10,350 nucleotides of DNA from a virus. Its lineage: Duplodnaviria > Heunggongvirae > Uroviricota > Caudoviricetes. The stretch's first letter is position 1, and each line of letters begins with the position of its first letter. Made by a program: the position numbers and the translations under genes. Shown one piece after another: positions 898-9,741 of the stretch. The stretch is from IMG/VR virus record IMGVR_UViG_2617270945_000014. One strand, written 5' to 3'. The notes below the pieces were generated by a model. The model was given only the letters and a program-made list of their open reading frames with translations. It was not told where the DNA came from and did not search any database.

Positions 898-2511
898 ATG
901 AGTCAGAAATACCTCATTCGCATCGCTGAGCTGGAAAGGCTGCTCTCTGAGCAGGCTGAAGCCCTCCGTCAGAAAGACCAGCAACTGAGTCTGGTTGAAG
1001 AGACGGAGGCCTTCCTGCGCTCTGCACTGGCACGTGCCGAAGAAAAGATCGAAGAAGATGAGCGAGAAATAGAGCATCTGCGGGCTCAGATAGAAAAACT
1101 GCGCCGGATGCTGTTCGGAACCCGTTCTGAAAAACTGCGTCGTGAGGTTGAACAGGCTGAAGCCCTGCTGAAACAACGCGAGCAGGAAAGCGATCGTTAC
1201 AGTGGGCGTGAGGATGACCCGCTGGTTCCCCGCCAGTTGCGACAGTCGCGCCATCGTCGTCCGTTACCGGCACATCTCCCCCGTGAAATATACCGCCTGG
1301 AGCCTGAAGAAAGCTGTTGCCCGGAGTGTGGCGGTGAGCTGGATTATCTGGGGGAAGTCAGCGCAGAACAACTGGAACTGGTGAGCAGCGCCCTGAAAGT
1401 GATCCGCACAGAACGGGTAAAAAAAGCCTGTACAAAATGTGACTGCATCGTTGAAGCACCGGCGCCGTCCCGCCCGATAGAGCGTGGTATCGCGGGCCCC
1501 GGATTACTTGCCCGCGTGTTAACGGGAAAATACTGCGAACACCTGCCACTGTATCGTCAGAGTGAAATCTTTGCCCGACAGGGTGTCGAACTGAGCCGTG
1601 CATTACTCTCCAACTGGGTTGACGCGTGCTGCCAGTTAATGACGCCGCTGAATGATGCCCTGTACCGTTATGTGATGAATACCCGCAAGCTTCACACTGA
1701 CGACACACCGGTAAAGGTACTGGCACCGGGCCTGAAAAAGACGAAAACAGGGCGCATCTGGACGTATGTCCGGGATGATCGCAATGCGGGTTCGTCATCT
1801 CCTCCGGCGGTCTGGTTCGCGTACTCATCGAACCGGCAGGGGAAACACCCGGAGCAACACCTCCGCCCCTTCCGGGGTATCCTGCAGGCGGATGCGTTCA
1901 CAGGTTATGACAGGCTGTTCAGTGCAGAACGTGAAGGTAGTGCGCTGACAGAAGTTGCGTGCTGGGCTCATGCCCGGAGAAAAATCCACGATGTATACAT
2001 CAGCAGCAAAAGTGCGACGGCAGAAGAAGCCCTGAAGCGAATCAGTGAACTGTACGCCATCGAGGATGAAATACGGGGATTACCAGAGTCAGAGCGTCTT
2101 GCAGCCAGGCAGCAGCGAAGCAAAGCGTTACTGACGTCGCTGCATGAATGGATGGTGGAGAAGAATGGCACGCTGTCGAAAAAATCCAGACTGGGCGAAG
2201 CGTTCAGCTATGTACTGAATCAGTGGGACGCCCTCTGTTATTACAGTGATGACGGTCTGGCGGAGGTGGACAATAACACAGCGGAAAGAGCGCTTCGTGC
2301 AGTCTGTCTCGGAAAGAAAAATTACGTGTTCTTCGGTAGCGATCACGGCGGCGAGCGTGGAGCACTGCTGTACGGGCTGATCGGCACCTGCCGTCTGAAC
2401 GGTATCGATCCGGAAGCGTATCTGCGCCATATTCTGAGCGTACTGCCGGAATGGCCCTCCAACCGTGTTGACGAACTCCTGCCATGGAACGTAGTACTCA
2501 CCAATAAATAA
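898..2511 (+). CDS. tnpC: IS66-family transposase (orf3/TnpC)
   Basis: 537-aa ORF with an N-terminal coiled-coil/leucine-zipper-like region, a CxxC…CxxC zinc-finger-like motif (CPECGG…CTKCDC) and a DDE-type core, which is the IS66 transposase architecture. The stop lies 30 bp before the right IR end. Confidence 0.9.
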   Translation: MSQKYLIRIAELERLLSEQAEALRQKDQQLSLVEETEAFLRSALARAEEKIEEDEREIEHLRAQIEKLRRMLFGTRSEKLRREVEQAEALLKQREQESDRYSGREDDPLVPRQLRQSRHRRPLPAHLPREIYRLEPEESCCPECGGELDYLGEVSAEQLELVSSALKVIRTERVKKACTKCDCIVEAPAPSRPIERGIAGPGLLARVLTGKYCEHLPLYRQSEIFARQGVELSRALLSNWVDACCQLMTPLNDALYRYVMNTRKLHTDDTPVKVLAPGLKKTKTGRIWTYVRDDRNAGSSSPPAVWFAYSSNRQGKHPEQHLRPFRGILQADAFTGYDRLFSAEREGSALTEVACWAHARRKIHDVYISSKSATAEEALKRISELYAIEDEIRGLPESERLAARQQRSKALLTSLHEWMVEKNGTLSKKSRLGEAFSYVLNQWDALCYYSDDGLAEVDNNTAERALRAVCLGKKNYVFFGSDHGGERGALLYGLIGTCRLNGIDPEAYLRHILSVLPEWPSNRVDELLPWNVVLTNK

Positions 2512-2930: not shown

Positions 2931-3086
2931 TTACTCCTCAGGTTCGTAAGCTGTGAAGACAGCGACCTCCGTCTGGCCGGTTCGGAGTCGTACCTCGCAG
3001 AGGTCTTTCCTCGTTACCAGTGCCGTCACTATGACGGTTAAACAGATGACGATCAGGGCGATTAACATCGCCTTTTGCTGCTTCAT
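2931..3086 (-). CDS. hokD: Hok/Gef-family type I toxin (small membrane-depolarising peptide), HokD/RelF-like
   Basis: 51-aa product MKQQKAMLIALIVICLTVIVTALVTRKDLCEVRLRTGQTEVAVFTAYEPEE, recognised from memory as near-identical to E. coli HokD/RelF and close to Gef/HokC. It has one transmembrane helix and the conserved Cys. Start taken at the internal ATG (3084-3086) rather than the 70-aa in-frame extension. Confidence 0.9.
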   Translation of the reverse strand: MKQQKAMLIALIVICLTVIVTALVTRKDLCEVRLRTGQTEVAVFTAYEPEE

Positions 3087-3323
3087 AGCCTGCTTCCCCT
3101 TGCCTTTCGGCACGTAAGAGGCTAACCTACATTTGTGAGACATAGATTGGGCCTCAGATTAATGTTAAGCGTCTTGCAGGACGCGAAATGTTAACTGGGG
3201 CTTTTCTCTATCTGCCTTTCAGTGTTCATGCCTGAGACAGATAGCCTCAAGCACCCGCAGCCATTCTACTTAACTCACGTCACCTCGCCAATATGAAATC
3301 AATCAGAAAGGTGATCCATAAAA

Positions 3324-4010
3324 TCACTCCTTCTCTTCTTTTCCGTAGTGGAGTTGGCCAATTTTGATAAGAGGGCGTCCCTGAGATTTGCGGTGTAGAT
3401 TGGTATCGCGCAGAGAATACACACAGCCACAATATTCCTGCTGATAGAATTTTTCGCGCTTGCTGATTTCAATCATACGGGACGAGCCGCCCTGCTTGCG
3501 CCAGTTATAATCCCAGTACACCATACCCGGATAATGCGCAACAGCTCGCCGCCCACACTCGTTAACCTGCTGCATATTTTTCCAGCGTGAAATGCCCAGT
3601 GAACTGCTGATCACACTGAAACCATTTTCAGCAGCGTACAACGCTGTCCGCTCAAAACGCATGTCAAAACACATGGTACAACGGATCCCCCTCTCAGGCT
3701 CCCATTCCATTCCTTTGGCACGTTCAAACCAGTTGTCGGTGTCGTAATCAGCATCGATAAACGGCACGCCGTGTTGTTCAGCAAAGCGAATATTTTCATC
3801 CTTACGAATTAAATACTCTTTCTGAGGATGAATGTTCGGGTTGTAGAAAAAGATGGTGTAGTCGATTCCCGAGGCCTGAAGCGCCTCCATCACTTCACCG
3901 GAACATGGAGCACAGCAAGAGTGCAGTAGTAGTTTGTTTGCCCCGTTTGGGAGCTCCAATTTAGGCCGTTTGAAATCAGCAATAGTCATAAATATTTTTA
4001 TTGGGGTCAT
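3324..4010 (-). CDS. queH: QueH-like epoxyqueuosine reductase homologue (DUF208 family); start codon uncertain (3989 or 4010)
   Basis: 228-aa ORF with motifs recalled for the QueH/DUF208 family: N-terminal [27 protein letters not shown] and C-terminal [11 protein letters not shown] (Cys-rich Fe-S ligand pattern). Neither candidate ATG has a clear Shine-Dalgarno sequence. Confidence 0.65.
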
Positions 4011-5396: not shown

Positions 5397-6143
5397 TTAC
5401 TTCACAACCCTCATATTGCTGACATTTGGACGCCAGCTATCCCAGTTAAACGTCACCCATCGACCACCGTTCATGGTCATGCGGTCCATAATCCTCTCAC
5501 CAAGAAGCGTACTCATTGCGGCATGATTCAGGTTTGTTAACATCCCGACACTGCACAGTGATGCTGTCCGGCGATCAATTATCTGGTGCAATACCACCTG
5601 CTCGTTTTTCGTCTCCCGCTGAACGCCTATTTCATCCAGGACCAGCAAATCAACCCCGCAAAGCTCCTGTAAAAATTTTTCCCCGGATTTGCCGTTGTCG
5701 TAGCTGTCATGCAACACGCTCATGACGTCAGACACGGTGACGATAATCACGCTGCGCCCCTTCACCATCAGCCGGTTGCCCATCGCCGCTGCAAGGTGAT
5801 TTTTCCCGGTGCCGGTTTTACCGCTGAACACAAAATTCGTGCACCCGGTCATCAGTTCGTCAGCTATGGATTTGGCCTGGCTCAGCGCGTATTTTTGCCC
5901 GTCGTTCTGCACCTGATAATTTGCAAACGAGCATTTGCTGTGCAGAGGCTGGATGCCCGAACGATTCAGGATTTTTTCCACCCGCAACTGGCGATTCTGG
6001 CGGTTAATCTCCTCGCTGCGTTTTCGTCCTTCAGCAAGTTGCCATTCCCGCCACTCCTCCACCGTCCGGTACGGTGGAACCGACCCCTGTGGTGCAAGTC
6101 TGCGAATACGTTCAAGAACCCCAACTGCCGCAATGTTTTTCAT
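5397..6143 (-). CDS. DnaC/IstB-like AAA+ replication helicase-loader (Rac YdaV-like, lambda P functional analogue)
   Basis: 248-aa ORF with Walker A (GKTGTGKNHLAAA) and Walker B (DLLVLDEIG) motifs, located immediately downstream of the O-like initiator gene. Confidence 0.85.
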   Translation of the reverse strand: MKNIAAVGVLERIRRLAPQGSVPPYRTVEEWREWQLAEGRKRSEEINRQNRQLRVEKILNRSGIQPLHSKCSFANYQVQNDGQKYALSQAKSIADELMTGCTNFVFSGKTGTGKNHLAAAMGNRLMVKGRSVIIVTVSDVMSVLHDSYDNGKSGEKFLQELCGVDLLVLDEIGVQRETKNEQVVLHQIIDRRTASLCSVGMLTNLNHAAMSTLLGERIMDRMTMNGGRWVTFNWDSWRPNVSNMRVVK

Positions 6144-6149
6144 GACACG

Positions 6150-7112
6150 TCACCCCCTGAATCCCGGCGGTATTTCAGTGTCCGGTTCAGAAATGTGATT
6201 CACGCAACGCTGCGCAGGCGAACGCCCCAGGCGGATAACCAGTTCATCCCATTTTTCCCGGAGTTTTGCCGGACTCATGATGTTTTTTACCCAGAACGAA
6301 TCCCGCTGGAGACGCCCAAACATTTCACAAATTTGTCTGTGAGTTCTGCCATCCAGCATCCGCATTGTGCGAACGTCATTGGCCCATGCTGTCCAGTTGG
6401 GTTCTTTCGGTCTAGTGATCTCGCCATCATAGCTGGCCGCCTGCTCGTAAAGACTCACGATTCGTCCCCAGATCCACTGTGCGCACACCAAATCTTCCTG
6501 ACTTCCCCACTGGCGTTTTTTCGCACTGAACACAACCGCGTCAGGGTGTCGGGTTAAAAAATCCTGTTCAGCCGTCTGCGGGTCCGGTTGCGAAGCGTCC
6601 GGACAAGAAGATCTTTTATCTGACGGATCAGGTTTTAATACTGACGGATCGGGGTCAATCATCGCCCCCCTAATCGGCAGTTTTTTATCAACAGTTGATC
6701 CATCAAAATTTGACGGGTCAACCGTTGAGGGGGCAATATTTGACGGGTCAACTGTTAACGGGTCATTTTTTGCCGGGCTAATTTTTCTTTTCGGTTTATA
6801 TGACTCACGCGCCGCCGCCGCAGCTGCTTCGAGTTTTTCCACATTAAGCCGATAGATATTGCTTACATTACGCCCACCGACCTTACGCTCTTCCTTCGTC
6901 AGCCAGCCCTCTTTCGCCAGTTCTGCAATAGCCGATTTCACTGTGGATTCACTTCTTGCACCGATCTGACGCCGGATAGTTTCAATGGCAGGCCATGACA
7001 CGCCCTCGTCATTGCTGTAGTCTGCAAGACGGGCCATAACCGCCACCCTGGATAAGATCATGCCGGTGAAGGCGCACCCTTCCCAGACAAGACCATGAAG
7101 CTTGCTGCTCAT
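6150..7112 (-). CDS. Replication initiator, lambda O-like (Rac YdaU-like); N-terminal HTH domain and internal repeat region
   Basis: About 320 aa from the first ATG at 7112 (the ORF track's longer start at 7127 is a GTG). The N-terminus has a winged-helix-like segment (WPAIETIRRQIGARSESTVKSAIAELAKEGWL). The middle contains peptide repeats (TVDPSN…TVDPSN…TVD) encoded by the DNA iterons. Confidence 0.8.
   Translation of the reverse strand: MSSKLHGLVWEGCAFTGMILSRVAVMARLADYSNDEGVSWPAIETIRRQIGARSESTVKSAIAELAKEGWLTKEERKVGGRNVSNIYRLNVEKLEAAAAAARESYKPKRKISPAKNDPLTVDPSNIAPSTVDPSNFDGSTVDKKLPIRGAMIDPDPSVLKPDPSDKRSSCPDASQPDPQTAEQDFLTRHPDAVVFSAKKRQWGSQEDLVCAQWIWGRIVSLYEQAASYDGEITRPKEPNWTAWANDVRTMRMLDGRTHRQICEMFGRLQRDSFWVKNIMSPAKLREKWDELVIRLGRSPAQRCVNHISEPDTEIPPGFRG
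6684..6790. repeat. Putative replication origin: ~30-bp-period iterons inside the O-like gene, followed by an AT-rich tract
   Basis: Palindromic cores TCAACAGTTGA (6688-6698), TCAACCGTTGA (6718-6728) and TCAACTGTTAA (6748-6758) are spaced exactly 30 bp apart. TTGACGGGTCA occurs at 6710-6720 and 6740-6750. An AT-rich stretch follows at about 6776-6800. This matches the ori-lambda arrangement of iterons within the O gene. Confidence 0.7.
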
Positions 7113-7134
7113 AAAACCCCCGAACACCGTGCTT

Positions 7135-7560
7135 TTAGTGCATCACCACAGCATTCCCTGCCGGGCCGCCGCGATTCATCTGGTCATACAAAACAACCGC
7201 TGACGCAACAAAATCATCGACATCCTTCCCCAGCCGATCCCTCCGTTCGACGATCTCACGGTAATATTCAGAACTGTGGCTGCGCATACGGGCCACCAGC
7301 AAAGGCGGCATCGCCTTTTCGATCGCCGGTAACAGAGCCTGCATTTTTTCAACAGCATCAGGGGTGTCTTTCTCTACCCAGCGGAAAATTTTCTGGGTAT
7401 TGCGAGCCAGGGCTTCCGGATGGCTGTCGTCATACAGTTCCGGGAACGTCATACCCAACTCAAAATAAGCCTGGGTTATTCCAGCTGCTGGAACTTTTTC
7501 GCCATCAGGACGCGCCCAGGCATTCATCGCCATGCGGATGTGTTCATGCTTGATTTTCAT
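7135..7560 (-). CDS. YdaT-like protein (Rac prophage YdaT family; in the cII position)
   Basis: 141-aa ORF with AGGAG 9 nt upstream of ATG 7560, overlapping the end of the YdaS-like gene by 17 nt. Size and position match Rac ydaT. Sequence identity is recalled, not searched. Confidence 0.65.
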   Translation of the reverse strand: MKIKHEHIRMAMNAWARPDGEKVPAAGITQAYFELGMTFPELYDDSHPEALARNTQKIFRWVEKDTPDAVEKMQALLPAIEKAMPPLLVARMRSHSSEYYREIVERRDRLGKDVDDFVASAVVLYDQMNRGGPAGNAVVMH

Positions 7561-7825
7561 GAATCAAGCTCCTAGAAAGTGGTTGTGTTAACGTTTTGGT
7601 ATCTTCCAGCTCGGGCCAAATATTCATCCAATCAAAAGGCCTTAGTTGCTGACGTGTAACTTCACCATTACTGGCTCGCTCAATAAGGACACATAACGAT
7701 GCCCCTAACACTTGACCTTTACTCAATGCCTTTCTTAGATAACCGATGCTGGTACCACACTCGCATGCAAACATACGCTGTTCATCTGACGAAAGAGAAT
7801 TGAGAAATATTCTTAATTCTTCCAT
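7544..7825 (-). CDS. Cro-like HTH regulator (YdaS/DicC-position), first gene of the early-right operon
   Basis: 93-aa ORF with AAGGAG 7 nt upstream of ATG 7825. It is divergent from the repressor gene and contains an HTH-like segment (CGTSIGYLRKALSKGQ). Confidence 0.7.
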   Translation of the reverse strand: MEELRIFLNSLSSDEQRMFACECGTSIGYLRKALSKGQVLGASLCVLIERASNGEVTRQQLRPFDWMNIWPELEDTKTLTQPLSRSLIHENQA

Positions 7826-7854
7826 AGCTACTCCTTAGTAAACACAGCAAAGAA

Positions 7855-7930
7855 TACCCACAGGTAAACAAAAGTCAATACCCATAGGTTGTTTACCTTG
7901 CGGTAATCGCATCTATTATTTACCTATGGA
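7855..7930. promoter_or_regulatory. Divergent promoter/operator region between the cro-like and repressor genes (OR-like)
   Basis: Three copies of a 12-bp dyad motif: TACCCACAGGTA (7855-7866), TACCCATAGGTT (7879-7890) and TACCTATGGA (7921-7930, overlapping the repressor ATG). There is also a perfect 10-bp inverted repeat, AGGTAAACAA (7862-7871) / TTGTTTACCT (7889-7898). Confidence 0.65.
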
Positions 7931-8345
7931 CAAATATGAATTTAGACGACAGCAACTCATCAAAATTCGTGATGAGAAATGCGATGGTAAAGCGGTTAAC
8001 GTGGCCAGAAAGATCGGGCGCGAGCCTTCTTATGTATCAAGAATGTTGTACCCAGAGGGGAAAAAGGGAAAAAAACGGATCGCTGATGATATGGTGGAGA
8101 TTATCGAAGAGTCCTTTGGGTTACCCCGGGGATGGATGGATGGTATCGTTTCATCATCAACGAACACAGCCTCCAGTTATGAAACAAGGGTTCTAACGCC
8201 ACGACAACGTATTTTTTTAGATCTCTTAGACGAACTGCCAGAAAGTGAAGCGGATAAATTATTAAAAACTCTTGAAGAGAAAAAACAGTATTACAATATG
8301 ATCTACGAAGAAATCCGTAAAAAGAAAGCACAAAACGCATCATAG
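7926..8345 (+). CDS. Prophage repressor, DicA/RacR-like HTH protein (no S24 peptidase domain)
   Basis: 139-aa ORF divergent from the cro-like gene. It has an N-terminal HTH-like region, and its C-terminal LPESE…LL motif resembles DicA (…LPESEQ…) as recalled. No Shine-Dalgarno sequence precedes the ATG, so the mRNA may be leaderless. Confidence 0.7.
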   Translation: MDKYEFRRQQLIKIRDEKCDGKAVNVARKIGREPSYVSRMLYPEGKKGKKRIADDMVEIIEESFGLPRGWMDGIVSSSTNTASSYETRVLTPRQRIFLDLLDELPESEADKLLKTLEEKKQYYNMIYEEIRKKKAQNAS

Positions 8346-9683: not shown

Positions 9684-9741
9684 TTTCTGGTGACGTTTGG
9701 CGGTATCAGTTTTACTCCGTGACTGCTCTGCCGCCCTTTTT
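9684..9741 (+). ncRNA. dicF: DicF small RNA (ftsZ-targeting sRNA of Qin/Kim-type prophages); 5' end approximate
   Basis: Sequence TTTCTGGTGACGTTTGGCGGTATCAGTTTTACTCCGTGACTGCTCTGCCGCCCTTTTT matches DicF as recalled. It ends in an intrinsic terminator and lies immediately upstream of dicB, as in K-12. Confidence 0.75.
9699..9741 (+). terminator. Intrinsic terminator forming the DicF 3' end
   Basis: GGCGG (9699-9703) … CCGCC (9731-9735) stem, followed by TTTTT (9737-9741). Confidence 0.65.

Follow-up and report, generated by a model that had tools for sequence, protein, structure and literature searches.

The stretch of DNA analysed here, hereafter the window, comprises 10,350 nucleotides of a Caudoviricetes record (IMGVR_UViG_2617270945_000014) and covers the early region of a lambdoid prophage of E. 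coli. An open reading frame on its minus strand (6150–7112) encodes a 320-residue replication initiator of the lambda O type, in which an N-terminal winged-helix domain, a disordered linker, a lambda-O-type C-terminal domain, and a DnaT-like tail follow one another. Within this gene, we found an array of seven 15-bp iterons (6681–6785, minus strand) and, on its C-terminal side, two conserved GATC-containing boxes. As we discuss below, comparisons with related sequences indicate that 6603–6785 is probably the replication origin of the prophage, embedded in the gene of its own initiator.

Anatomy of the iteron array

The array, which was delineated by repeat searches and by family-wide conservation, occupies codons 110–144 of 320, within the stretch that encodes the disordered inter-domain linker, and consists of head-to-tail units that each contain a 5-bp spacer and a 10-bp core of the type TGAC-CC-GTCA; the rule for cores across the family is TGA-N4-TCA. 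Read on the coding (minus) strand and written as spacer and core, the units are U0, AAAAT-TAGCCCGGCA (6771–6785); U1, AAAAA-TGACCCGTTA; U2, ACAGT-TGACCCGTCA; U3, AATAT-TGCCCCCTCA (core 6726–6735); U4, ACGGT-TGACCCGTCA; U5, AATTT-TGATGGATCA; and U6, ACTGT-TGATAAAAAA (6681–6695). The best cores, both TGACCCGTCA, lie at 6741–6750 and 6711–6720, and the outer units U0 and U6 are degenerate. The core of U3 differs by a point change from TGACCCCTCA, the commonest allele (loci L098–L177).

A first-pass annotation had described this region as three direct repeats of ~30 bp. The repetition is real, but its basic unit is 15 bp. Tandem Repeats Finder reported a period of 30 at 6688–6756 (2.3 copies, 79% matches, score 82) and a period of 15 at 6688–6765 (5.2 copies), and a repeat search returned five in-register copies at 15-bp spacing. 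Self-identity over 6681–6780 was 64% at a lag of 15, 69% at a lag of 30, and 55% at a lag of 45, with values of ~10–40%, mostly 15–30%, at other lags. Three TGA-N4-TCA cores fall no more than 100 bp apart, and none of 500 Markov simulations exceeded two. The 30-bp beat arises because, in the allele group of the window, spacers alternate between AAWWT and ACNGT and strong cores alternate with weak ones; comparison with relatives showed that this beat is not a property of the family. Unit number also varies among near-identical alleles, some of which encode proteins of 315 rather than 320 residues and have lost exactly one 15-bp unit.

The two palindromes named in the same annotation correspond to the core (TGAC-CC-GTCA) and to the TCA/spacer/TGA junction (TCAAC-N-GTTGA) of this 15-bp arrangement. 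The junction palindrome is exact at 6688 and 6718, but its third copy, TCAACTGTTAA at 6748, is imperfect; likewise, TGACGGGTCA is exact at 6711 and 6741 and imperfect in its third copy, TAACGGGTCA at 6756. Moreover, TGACGGGTCA is an inverted repeat, but its 2-bp centre is non-palindromic.

The idea that a 30-bp spacing places the sites on the same helical face holds only approximately and is not borne out by relatives. Thirty base pairs correspond to 2.86 turns, the distance between every second unit, and thus to a phase shift of ~51°, and relatives carry plain 15-bp arrays or arrays with a 45-bp superperiod. Because neighbouring units are 1.43 turns (~154°) apart and the relatives have these other periods, a same-face design is not a conserved feature, and we rejected the helical-face model as a conserved principle. 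We also rejected flanking DnaA boxes as evidence for an origin. Two 9-mers with one mismatch to the DnaA box, TTATCAACA and TTTTCCACA (6685–6693 and 6835–6843, plus strand), flank the array, but the number of such 9-mers in the window as a whole is at chance level, being reached by 35 of 200 shuffles.

Constraint on the repeats at the DNA level

For comparison, we collected relatives of the N-terminal domain from nine phage genomes (including SfII, phiP27, phiNP, LLS, YeP1, and Klebsiella phages), 80 loci from different Enterobacterales species with 54–78% identity in this domain, and 80 near-identical viral contigs. The initiator family is spread through prophages of Enterobacterales and through phages including SfII, SfIV, and phiP27. 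Chained 15-bp units, numbering three to nine with a mode of five, directly follow the winged-helix domain in 74 of the 80 species-level loci and stand at the same place in the nine phage genomes. Some relatives came from assemblies labelled Vagococcus, Chryseobacterium, and Martelella or from an 'Elizabethkingia phage' (L048, L054, L034; H104); these are typical enterobacterial sequences, and the labels look like contamination or mislabelling in public records.

Multiple observations bear on whether protein or DNA is constrained. First, we defined units at the protein level only, as [DE]-x-S motifs in the linker, and found that the unit serine is encoded by TCA in 395 of 444 cases (89%), as opposed to 193 of 1332 serines (14.5%) outside the linker in the same genes. 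Across the same loci, the invariant Ser33 and Ser84 of the N-terminal domain use all six serine codons (for Ser33: AGC 41, AGT 19, TCG 9, TCT 8, TCA 7, and TCC 2). Second, TGA is completed by a third-position T, and this T persists whether its codon specifies S, F, V, I, A, P, Y, T, N, or C, ten amino acids in all; the middle codon of the unit has diverged to 25 codons for 11 amino acids. Third, the most informative positions of 40 phage units include two codon third positions, T6 (1.71 bits) and A15 (1.62 bits). Finally, in the clade of the window (Erwinia, Mixta, Edwardsiella, and Morganella), units of sequence TGACCCCTCA, which encode D-P-S, occur together with units of the exact reverse complement, TGAGGGGTCA, which encode E-G-S. 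Two Edwardsiella species in this clade differ by a 45-bp block of three units. The unit consensus also differs by N-domain clade: it is TTGAC in that of the window, TCTGAC in that of SfII, and TCTGAA in that of phiP27.

Constraint on the peptide accounts for none of the synonymous-site pattern, which argues that the constraint acts on DNA rather than peptide and that the conserved entity is a DNA site straddling codons. Translation of these in-frame sites yields a repetitive peptide, xVDPSx. The repeated TVDPSN peptide of the first-pass annotation is part of this translation; it is encoded twice in the linker, and its third copy has degenerated to STVDKK. AlphaFold2 modelled the linker (residues 108–176; 6585–6791) as disordered, with predicted local distance difference test (pLDDT) scores below 50, and the repeat peptide thus appears to be a passenger of the DNA sites within a disordered linker.

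Conserved GATC boxes and a putative unwinding region

Past the array, the family shares a layout of an A-run, a G/C-rich gap, two GATCCRTCAG boxes separated by an AT-rich spacer, and then ATAAAA. In the window, all on the minus strand, a GC-rich gap of 36% AT (6659–6680), at the position of which relatives have an equivalent G-rich stretch, GAATCTGGNGGG, leads from the array to the half-site TTGACCCC and then to box 1, GATCCGTCAG (6641–6658 for both; 6641–6650 for box 1), a core-like sequence with GATC inside. These are followed by the AT-rich spacer TATTAAAACC (6631–6640), box 2, TGATCCGTCAG (6620–6630), and ATAAAAGATCTTCTTGT (6603–6619). The boxes resemble the array cores, as TGATCCGTCA fits TGA-N4-TCA.

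Both boxes are present in 76 of 81 loci, and across species the region that contains them (6603–6650) is better conserved than the array. Their aspartate is encoded by GAT in 76 of 76 loci for box 1 and in 69 of 76 for box 2, compared with a background of 55%, and GATC is thus preserved. In box 1, the proline codon is CCG in 68 of 76 loci, and the third codon is TCA in 64 of 76. The boxes are spaced by 24 bp in 68 loci, by 18 bp in seven, and by 21 bp in the window, and the spacer between them averages 76% AT across loci. The element is common to genes with different C-terminal domains. Allele L168 has lost exactly one box, or 21 bp; this allele and those that lack one 15-bp unit are natural mutants for origin function.

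The region 6603–6650 aligns with the AT-rich region and right border of the lambda and phi80 origins (right-border sequences: window, AAAAGATCTTCTTGTCCGGA; phi80, AAAAGATCTTCGTCCGAGA; lambda, AAAAGATTATTCGTCAGAGA). Based upon this alignment, the conservation of box 2, and AT content, we propose that 6603–6640 (minus strand) is the putative unwinding region and is homologous by position to the AT-rich regions found in ori-lambda and ori-phi80. By contrast, the AT-rich tract that the first-pass annotation placed next to the repeats does not stand out as an element. This tract (6766–6809, minus strand) is moderately AT-rich at only 64% AT, flanks the array on its N-terminal side, and is missing from SfII-group relatives; its 30-bp stability is approximately –35 kcal/mol against a window mean of –41 (standard deviation 3.5), and two other patches nearby are just as weak. 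Judged by composition, stability, and conservation, it is probably not the conserved unwinding element.

An alternative, which we consider unlikely, would alter this one step of the model only: the array would supply the iterons of an origin, but unwinding would start at 6766–6809 or 6681–6710, and the boxes would owe their conservation chiefly to a role as a joint for recombination between the exchangeable N- and C-terminal modules of the initiator gene. Indeed, 6680–6714 (70–73% AT) and 6775–6809 (67–70% AT) are as unstable as 6610–6645 (67% AT) or less stable, the box region lies exactly where the two modules reassort, and it is generally known that junctions in mosaic lambdoid genomes can stay conserved by frequent exchange. 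However, the upstream tract is absent from SfII-type relatives, the AT-rich region of lambda and phi80 lies on the C-terminal side of the iterons and aligns with the box region of the window, and the boxes themselves are core-like.

Domains and modular exchange of the initiator

The initiator matches PHROG 391 ('replication initiation O-like') with E 2.1e-115, residues 1–320 aligning with positions 1–298 of the 298-position profile. AlphaFold2 models contain folded segments at residues 1–105 and 177–297 and disordered segments at 108–176 and 298–320. The N-terminal segment (6798–7112, minus strand; pLDDT 70–87) contains the sole Pfam match of the protein, HTH_36 (PF13730, residues 25–71), and is the presumed iteron-binding domain. 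Its fold matches are winged-helix DNA binders of the MarR/PadR/PaaX type (E ~4e-3); the fold search with the AlphaFold2 model returned generic winged-helix regulators only and no structure of a replication initiator. The C-terminal segment (6222–6584, minus strand; pLDDT 78–90) is a homologue by BLASTP of the C-terminal domains of lambda O (35% identity, E 5e-26) and phi80 gp15 (36%, E 5e-26). In lambda, this domain of O binds the P loader. The N-terminal domains of lambda O and phi80 gp15 belong to a different family, Phage_rep_O (PF04492), and BLASTP detected no similarity between them and the N-terminal domain encoded in the window.

These two parts of the protein behave as separate modules, as in lambda O. 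Matches to other phages at the DNA level are confined to the C-terminal half of the initiator gene, the N-terminal domain and array are joined to at least three unrelated C-terminal domains, and the array travels with the N-terminal domain rather than with the C-terminal domain or with regulators.

The last 21 residues of the initiator, ...VNHISEPDTEIPPGFRG (residues 300–320; 6153–6215, minus strand), match the C-terminus of the E. coli replication-restart protein DnaT almost residue for residue (PDB 2ru8, 6aep, and 9zbt; E 2e-4), and a tail of this kind is present on 51 of 87 relatives, whatever the type of C-terminal domain, as well as on YdaU of E. coli K-12. Within the available downstream flank, none of the 51 tailed relatives has a DnaC-like gene, and the six loci with a DnaC-like neighbour all lack the tail; the window and the Rac prophage of K-12 have both. 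This distribution hints at DnaT mimicry as a possible route of helicase loading by tailed initiators. The part of a 2026 preprimosome paper that we consulted does not state the contacts made by the extreme C-terminus of DnaT. In E. coli MB07081 (L002, 588–2013), a 91%-identical allele of the initiator gene is followed directly by a DUF977 gene, with neither a DnaC-like nor a DUF1627 gene. SfII, LLS, phiNP, 733R5, and YeP1 (L005–L009) have no loader gene, and in most of them an adenine methylase gene is found at that place or nearby.

Comparison with known origins

The first-pass annotation had likened the array to ori-lambda, with iterons inside an O-like initiator gene, and position, C-domain homology, and DNA-level constraint all support this comparison. 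Like the array of the window, the iterons of ori-lambda and ori-phi80 are internal to the initiator gene, and their relative position corresponds (codons ~110–147 overall); record annotations place these experimentally defined iterons at codons 117–145 of 299 in lambda O and 122–147 of 302 in phi80 gene 15. In all three, DNA with a homologous right border, AT-rich in lambda and phi80 and putatively the equivalent region in the window, lies downstream of the iterons, the C-terminal domains of the initiators are homologous (35–36% identity), and a helicase-loader gene stands directly downstream in a rightward early operon, after cro- and cII-like genes. In each case, the N-terminal domain and its iterons also form one exchangeable module and the C-terminal domain another. 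There are also differences. The window has an HTH_36 rather than a Phage_rep_O N-terminal domain, and seven contiguous 15-bp units with a 10-bp core rather than four sites of ~18–19 bp spaced by 20–24 bp (20, 24, and 23 bp in lambda; 20, 21, and 21 bp in phi80). It has extra GATC-containing core-like boxes inside the AT-rich part, a DnaC/IstB-like loader rather than lambda P, and a DnaT-like tail at the C-terminus of its initiator.

Distantly related lambdoid initiators each carry their own iterons within the gene (PMC8022706; PMC7466680). Gene 18 of P22 contains four repeats of ~20 bp, and that of phage L contains six imprecise copies of an 11-bp sequence, 'likely the origin' (PMC8022706). 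These putative origins resemble that of the window in having their own short repeats in mid-gene and in having been recognized by the same comparative logic (PMC8022706), but they differ in repeat sequence and period, and their initiators are partnered with a DnaB-type helicase gene rather than a DnaC-like loader gene. P22 and phage L were absent from a tblastn search with the N-terminal domain at E ≤ 1e-5, a threshold that leaves room for more distant homology.

The gene layout of the Rac prophage of K-12 (ydaS-ydaT-ydaU-ydaV-ydaW) is that of the window, with YdaS-like and YdaT-like proteins, an initiator, the DnaC-like YdaV, and the DUF1627 protein YdaW, and the two initiators share a C-terminal ...IPPGFRG tail. 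The Rac region holds a functional origin, and oriJ plasmids are cited in PMC11014345. We nevertheless rejected identity with the K-12 oriJ: YdaU aligns with the initiator of the window over its last 19 residues only, has an unrelated N-terminal domain (DUF1376) and no lambda-O-type C-domain match, and its gene contains different repeats. These comprise four copies of AAGCAGATGTTCAA at spacings of 33, 33, and 12 bp and an inverted TGTTCAAACA (L017, 2972–3078), and by sequence they are candidate iterons of the classical Rac oriJ. In addition, the prophage of the window occupies a different integration site, beside ompW.

Iteron plasmid origins (RepA, pi, and RepE) and P1 oriR likewise combine tandem repeats, a winged-helix initiator, and an adjacent AT-rich region, features that are predicted for the window. 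GATC motifs are found in the unwinding regions of P1 oriR and oriC. Plasmid iterons, however, are ~17–22 bp long with helically phased spacing of ~22 bp and, like the DnaA boxes that accompany them, are usually found outside the rep gene, whereas the units of the window measure 15 bp (1.43 turns), adjoin one another, and lie within the gene, with DnaA-box-like sequences at chance frequency.

Gene neighbourhood and prophage context

Directly downstream of the initiator gene lies a gene for a DnaC/IstB-like AAA+ helicase loader (5397–6143, minus strand; Pfam IstB_IS21, E 7e-19; PHROG 50 'DnaC-like helicase loader', E 8e-82). This protein is not homologous to lambda P but is, by analogy, its likely functional counterpart. 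Farther downstream are a DUF1627 gene and then a Ren-like gene. Upstream in the rightward early operon of the initiator (7135–7825, minus strand), Pfam and PHROG matches identify a CII-like gene of the YdaT type (7135–7560) and a Cro-like gene of the YdaS type (7544–7825). A promoter-like site of the operon was predicted at 7878–7851 on the minus strand, and a divergent repressor-like gene (PHROG) occupies 7926–8345. The order repressor, Cro-like, CII-like, initiator, DnaC-like loader, DUF1627, and Ren-like parallels cI-cro-cII-O-P-ren of lambda. Promoter and terminator prediction over 6100–7800 returned nothing near the array, the sole prediction being the early-promoter pair near 7850–7920, and Rfam searches detected no structured RNA in the array region.

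The Rfam matches of the window lie elsewhere: a sok antitoxin RNA (120.5 bits; 3081–3256, minus strand), which implies a hok/sok toxin-antitoxin locus, and the DicF small RNA (76.7 bits; 9685–9736, plus strand). At the left end of the window, an IS66-family transposase gene (898–2511, plus strand; DDE_Tnp_IS66, E 3e-97) is preceded by two small open reading frames (83–520 and 517–867), and the span 83–2511 was apparently inserted into the prophage. The prophage also encodes a homologue of QueH (epoxyqueuosine reductase; 3324–4010, minus strand; E 1e-65). A 528-bp segment that includes the array and boxes (6600–7127) is 100% identical to NZ_CP062910 and is present in 1521 of 5426 complete E. 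coli genomes (~28%), O157:H7 strains among them.

A model for origin function and alternative explanations

From the established anatomy, DNA-level constraint, family-wide conservation, domain homologies, and positional equivalence to ori-lambda and ori-phi80, we infer initiator binding, an unwinding site, loader recruitment, and origin activity by analogy with those origins. In this model, the N-terminal winged-helix domain would bind the TGA-N4-TCA cores of the seven contiguous units and two or three core-like sites in the GATC boxes, and the bound initiators would build a multimeric nucleoprotein complex like the O-some of lambda. This complex would destabilize the adjacent AT-rich spacers around and after the two boxes (6603–6640), and the lambda-O-type C-terminal domain would bring in host DnaB via the DnaC-like loader encoded directly downstream. 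Transcription from the early promoter on the Cro side would run through the origin, as in lambda. As for the recognition unit, its centre may be either the core or the spacer palindrome TCAAC-N-GTTGA.

Several points weigh against this assignment. The correspondence of unit consensus with N-domain clade may be due to plain co-inheritance of adjacent DNA rather than co-adaptation, and the units of an array are not independent observations, as slippage and concerted evolution copy them. The region 6603–6650 is 62% AT (76–80% in its spacers), compared with 62% in phi80 and 72% in lambda, and its stability is not among the lowest in the window. Clustering of GATC within the window (four sites in 90 bp) was reached by 12.7% of simulations and is not significant; we therefore discarded this statistic, and support for the boxes is comparative only. 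For a winged-helix dimer, the geometry is unusual: the half-sites of the 10-bp core are only 7 bp apart, and cores recur every 15 bp. Finally, the literature that we searched, most older subscription papers being outside it, contains no binding, unwinding, or autonomous-replication data for HTH_36-type initiators and describes neither an origin for this family nor the core sequence. Searches of this literature for TGACCCGTCA and related cores returned unrelated primer or fungal matches only, and papers on SfIV and CP-933P mention just a 'replication module' or an 'O homologue'.

Two alternatives deny an origin altogether. It is improbable, in our assessment, that the array and boxes are binding sites with another role, such as autoregulation or a roadblock of the early operon, or sites for the CII-like YdaT protein, for a partition or packaging protein, or for SeqA at the GATC boxes. 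DNA-level constraint shows that the DNA is read without naming its reader, the GATC conserved in both boxes would suit recognition by Dam and SeqA, and an adenine methylase gene directly follows the initiator gene in many relatives. Nevertheless, the elements have the same position and order as those of ori-lambda and ori-phi80, two origins at which initiator binding is established, their flanks are homologous to those of the two origins, and the array accompanies the initiator N-terminal domain rather than regulators or the C-terminal domain. Moreover, its pattern is unlike the TTGC-N6-TTGC repeat generally known for CII-type proteins, no promoter-like site lies in or beside it, and DnaA-box-like 9-mers do not exceed chance. 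An origin accounts better than a non-origin role for the positional and sequence homology to ori-lambda.

It is very improbable that slippage simply produced a low-complexity linker, with functionless DNA and any selection acting on a flexible Asp/Pro/Ser-rich spacer: the segment does code for a linker that AlphaFold2 models as disordered, its amino-acid content is typical of linkers, and close alleles and species differ by whole units as slippage predicts, but this explanation conflicts with the TCA bias of the unit serines (89% versus 14.5% elsewhere, next to conserved N-domain serines that use all six codons), with the third-position T kept across ten amino acids, with the exact reverse complementarity of DPS and EGS units, with the freely varying middle residue, and with the invariant GAT for the aspartate of box 1 (76 of 76 loci).

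Implications

If 6603–6785 is an origin of the kind proposed, it is a further example of a lambdoid principle that is textbook knowledge for lambda and phi80, not a new kind of element. What sequence comparison newly contributes is the TGA-N4-TCA rule with its 15-bp unit, together with the conserved GATC boxes. The design may depart further from that of lambda, although we regard this as a doubtful prospect, by forming a continuous winged-helix filament on the 15-bp units that feeds into an unwinding element, by having origin firing made sensitive to Dam methylation or SeqA through the two GATC boxes of that element, and by recruiting helicase through the DnaT-mimic tail. If the latter holds, phages that lack a loader gene could use the tail to load DnaB via primosome partners of the host.

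For the family, TGA-N4-TCA every 15 bp followed by two GATCCRTCAG boxes offers a rule for annotating origins. A sequence-defined origin would also give experiments on which 'cryptic' prophages can still replicate a definite target, help to interpret read-depth peaks after induction, and serve as a starting point for compatible phage-derived replicons. More generally, the array appears to be a clean example of DNA sites that are written in a reading frame and that the protein tolerates as a disordered linker.

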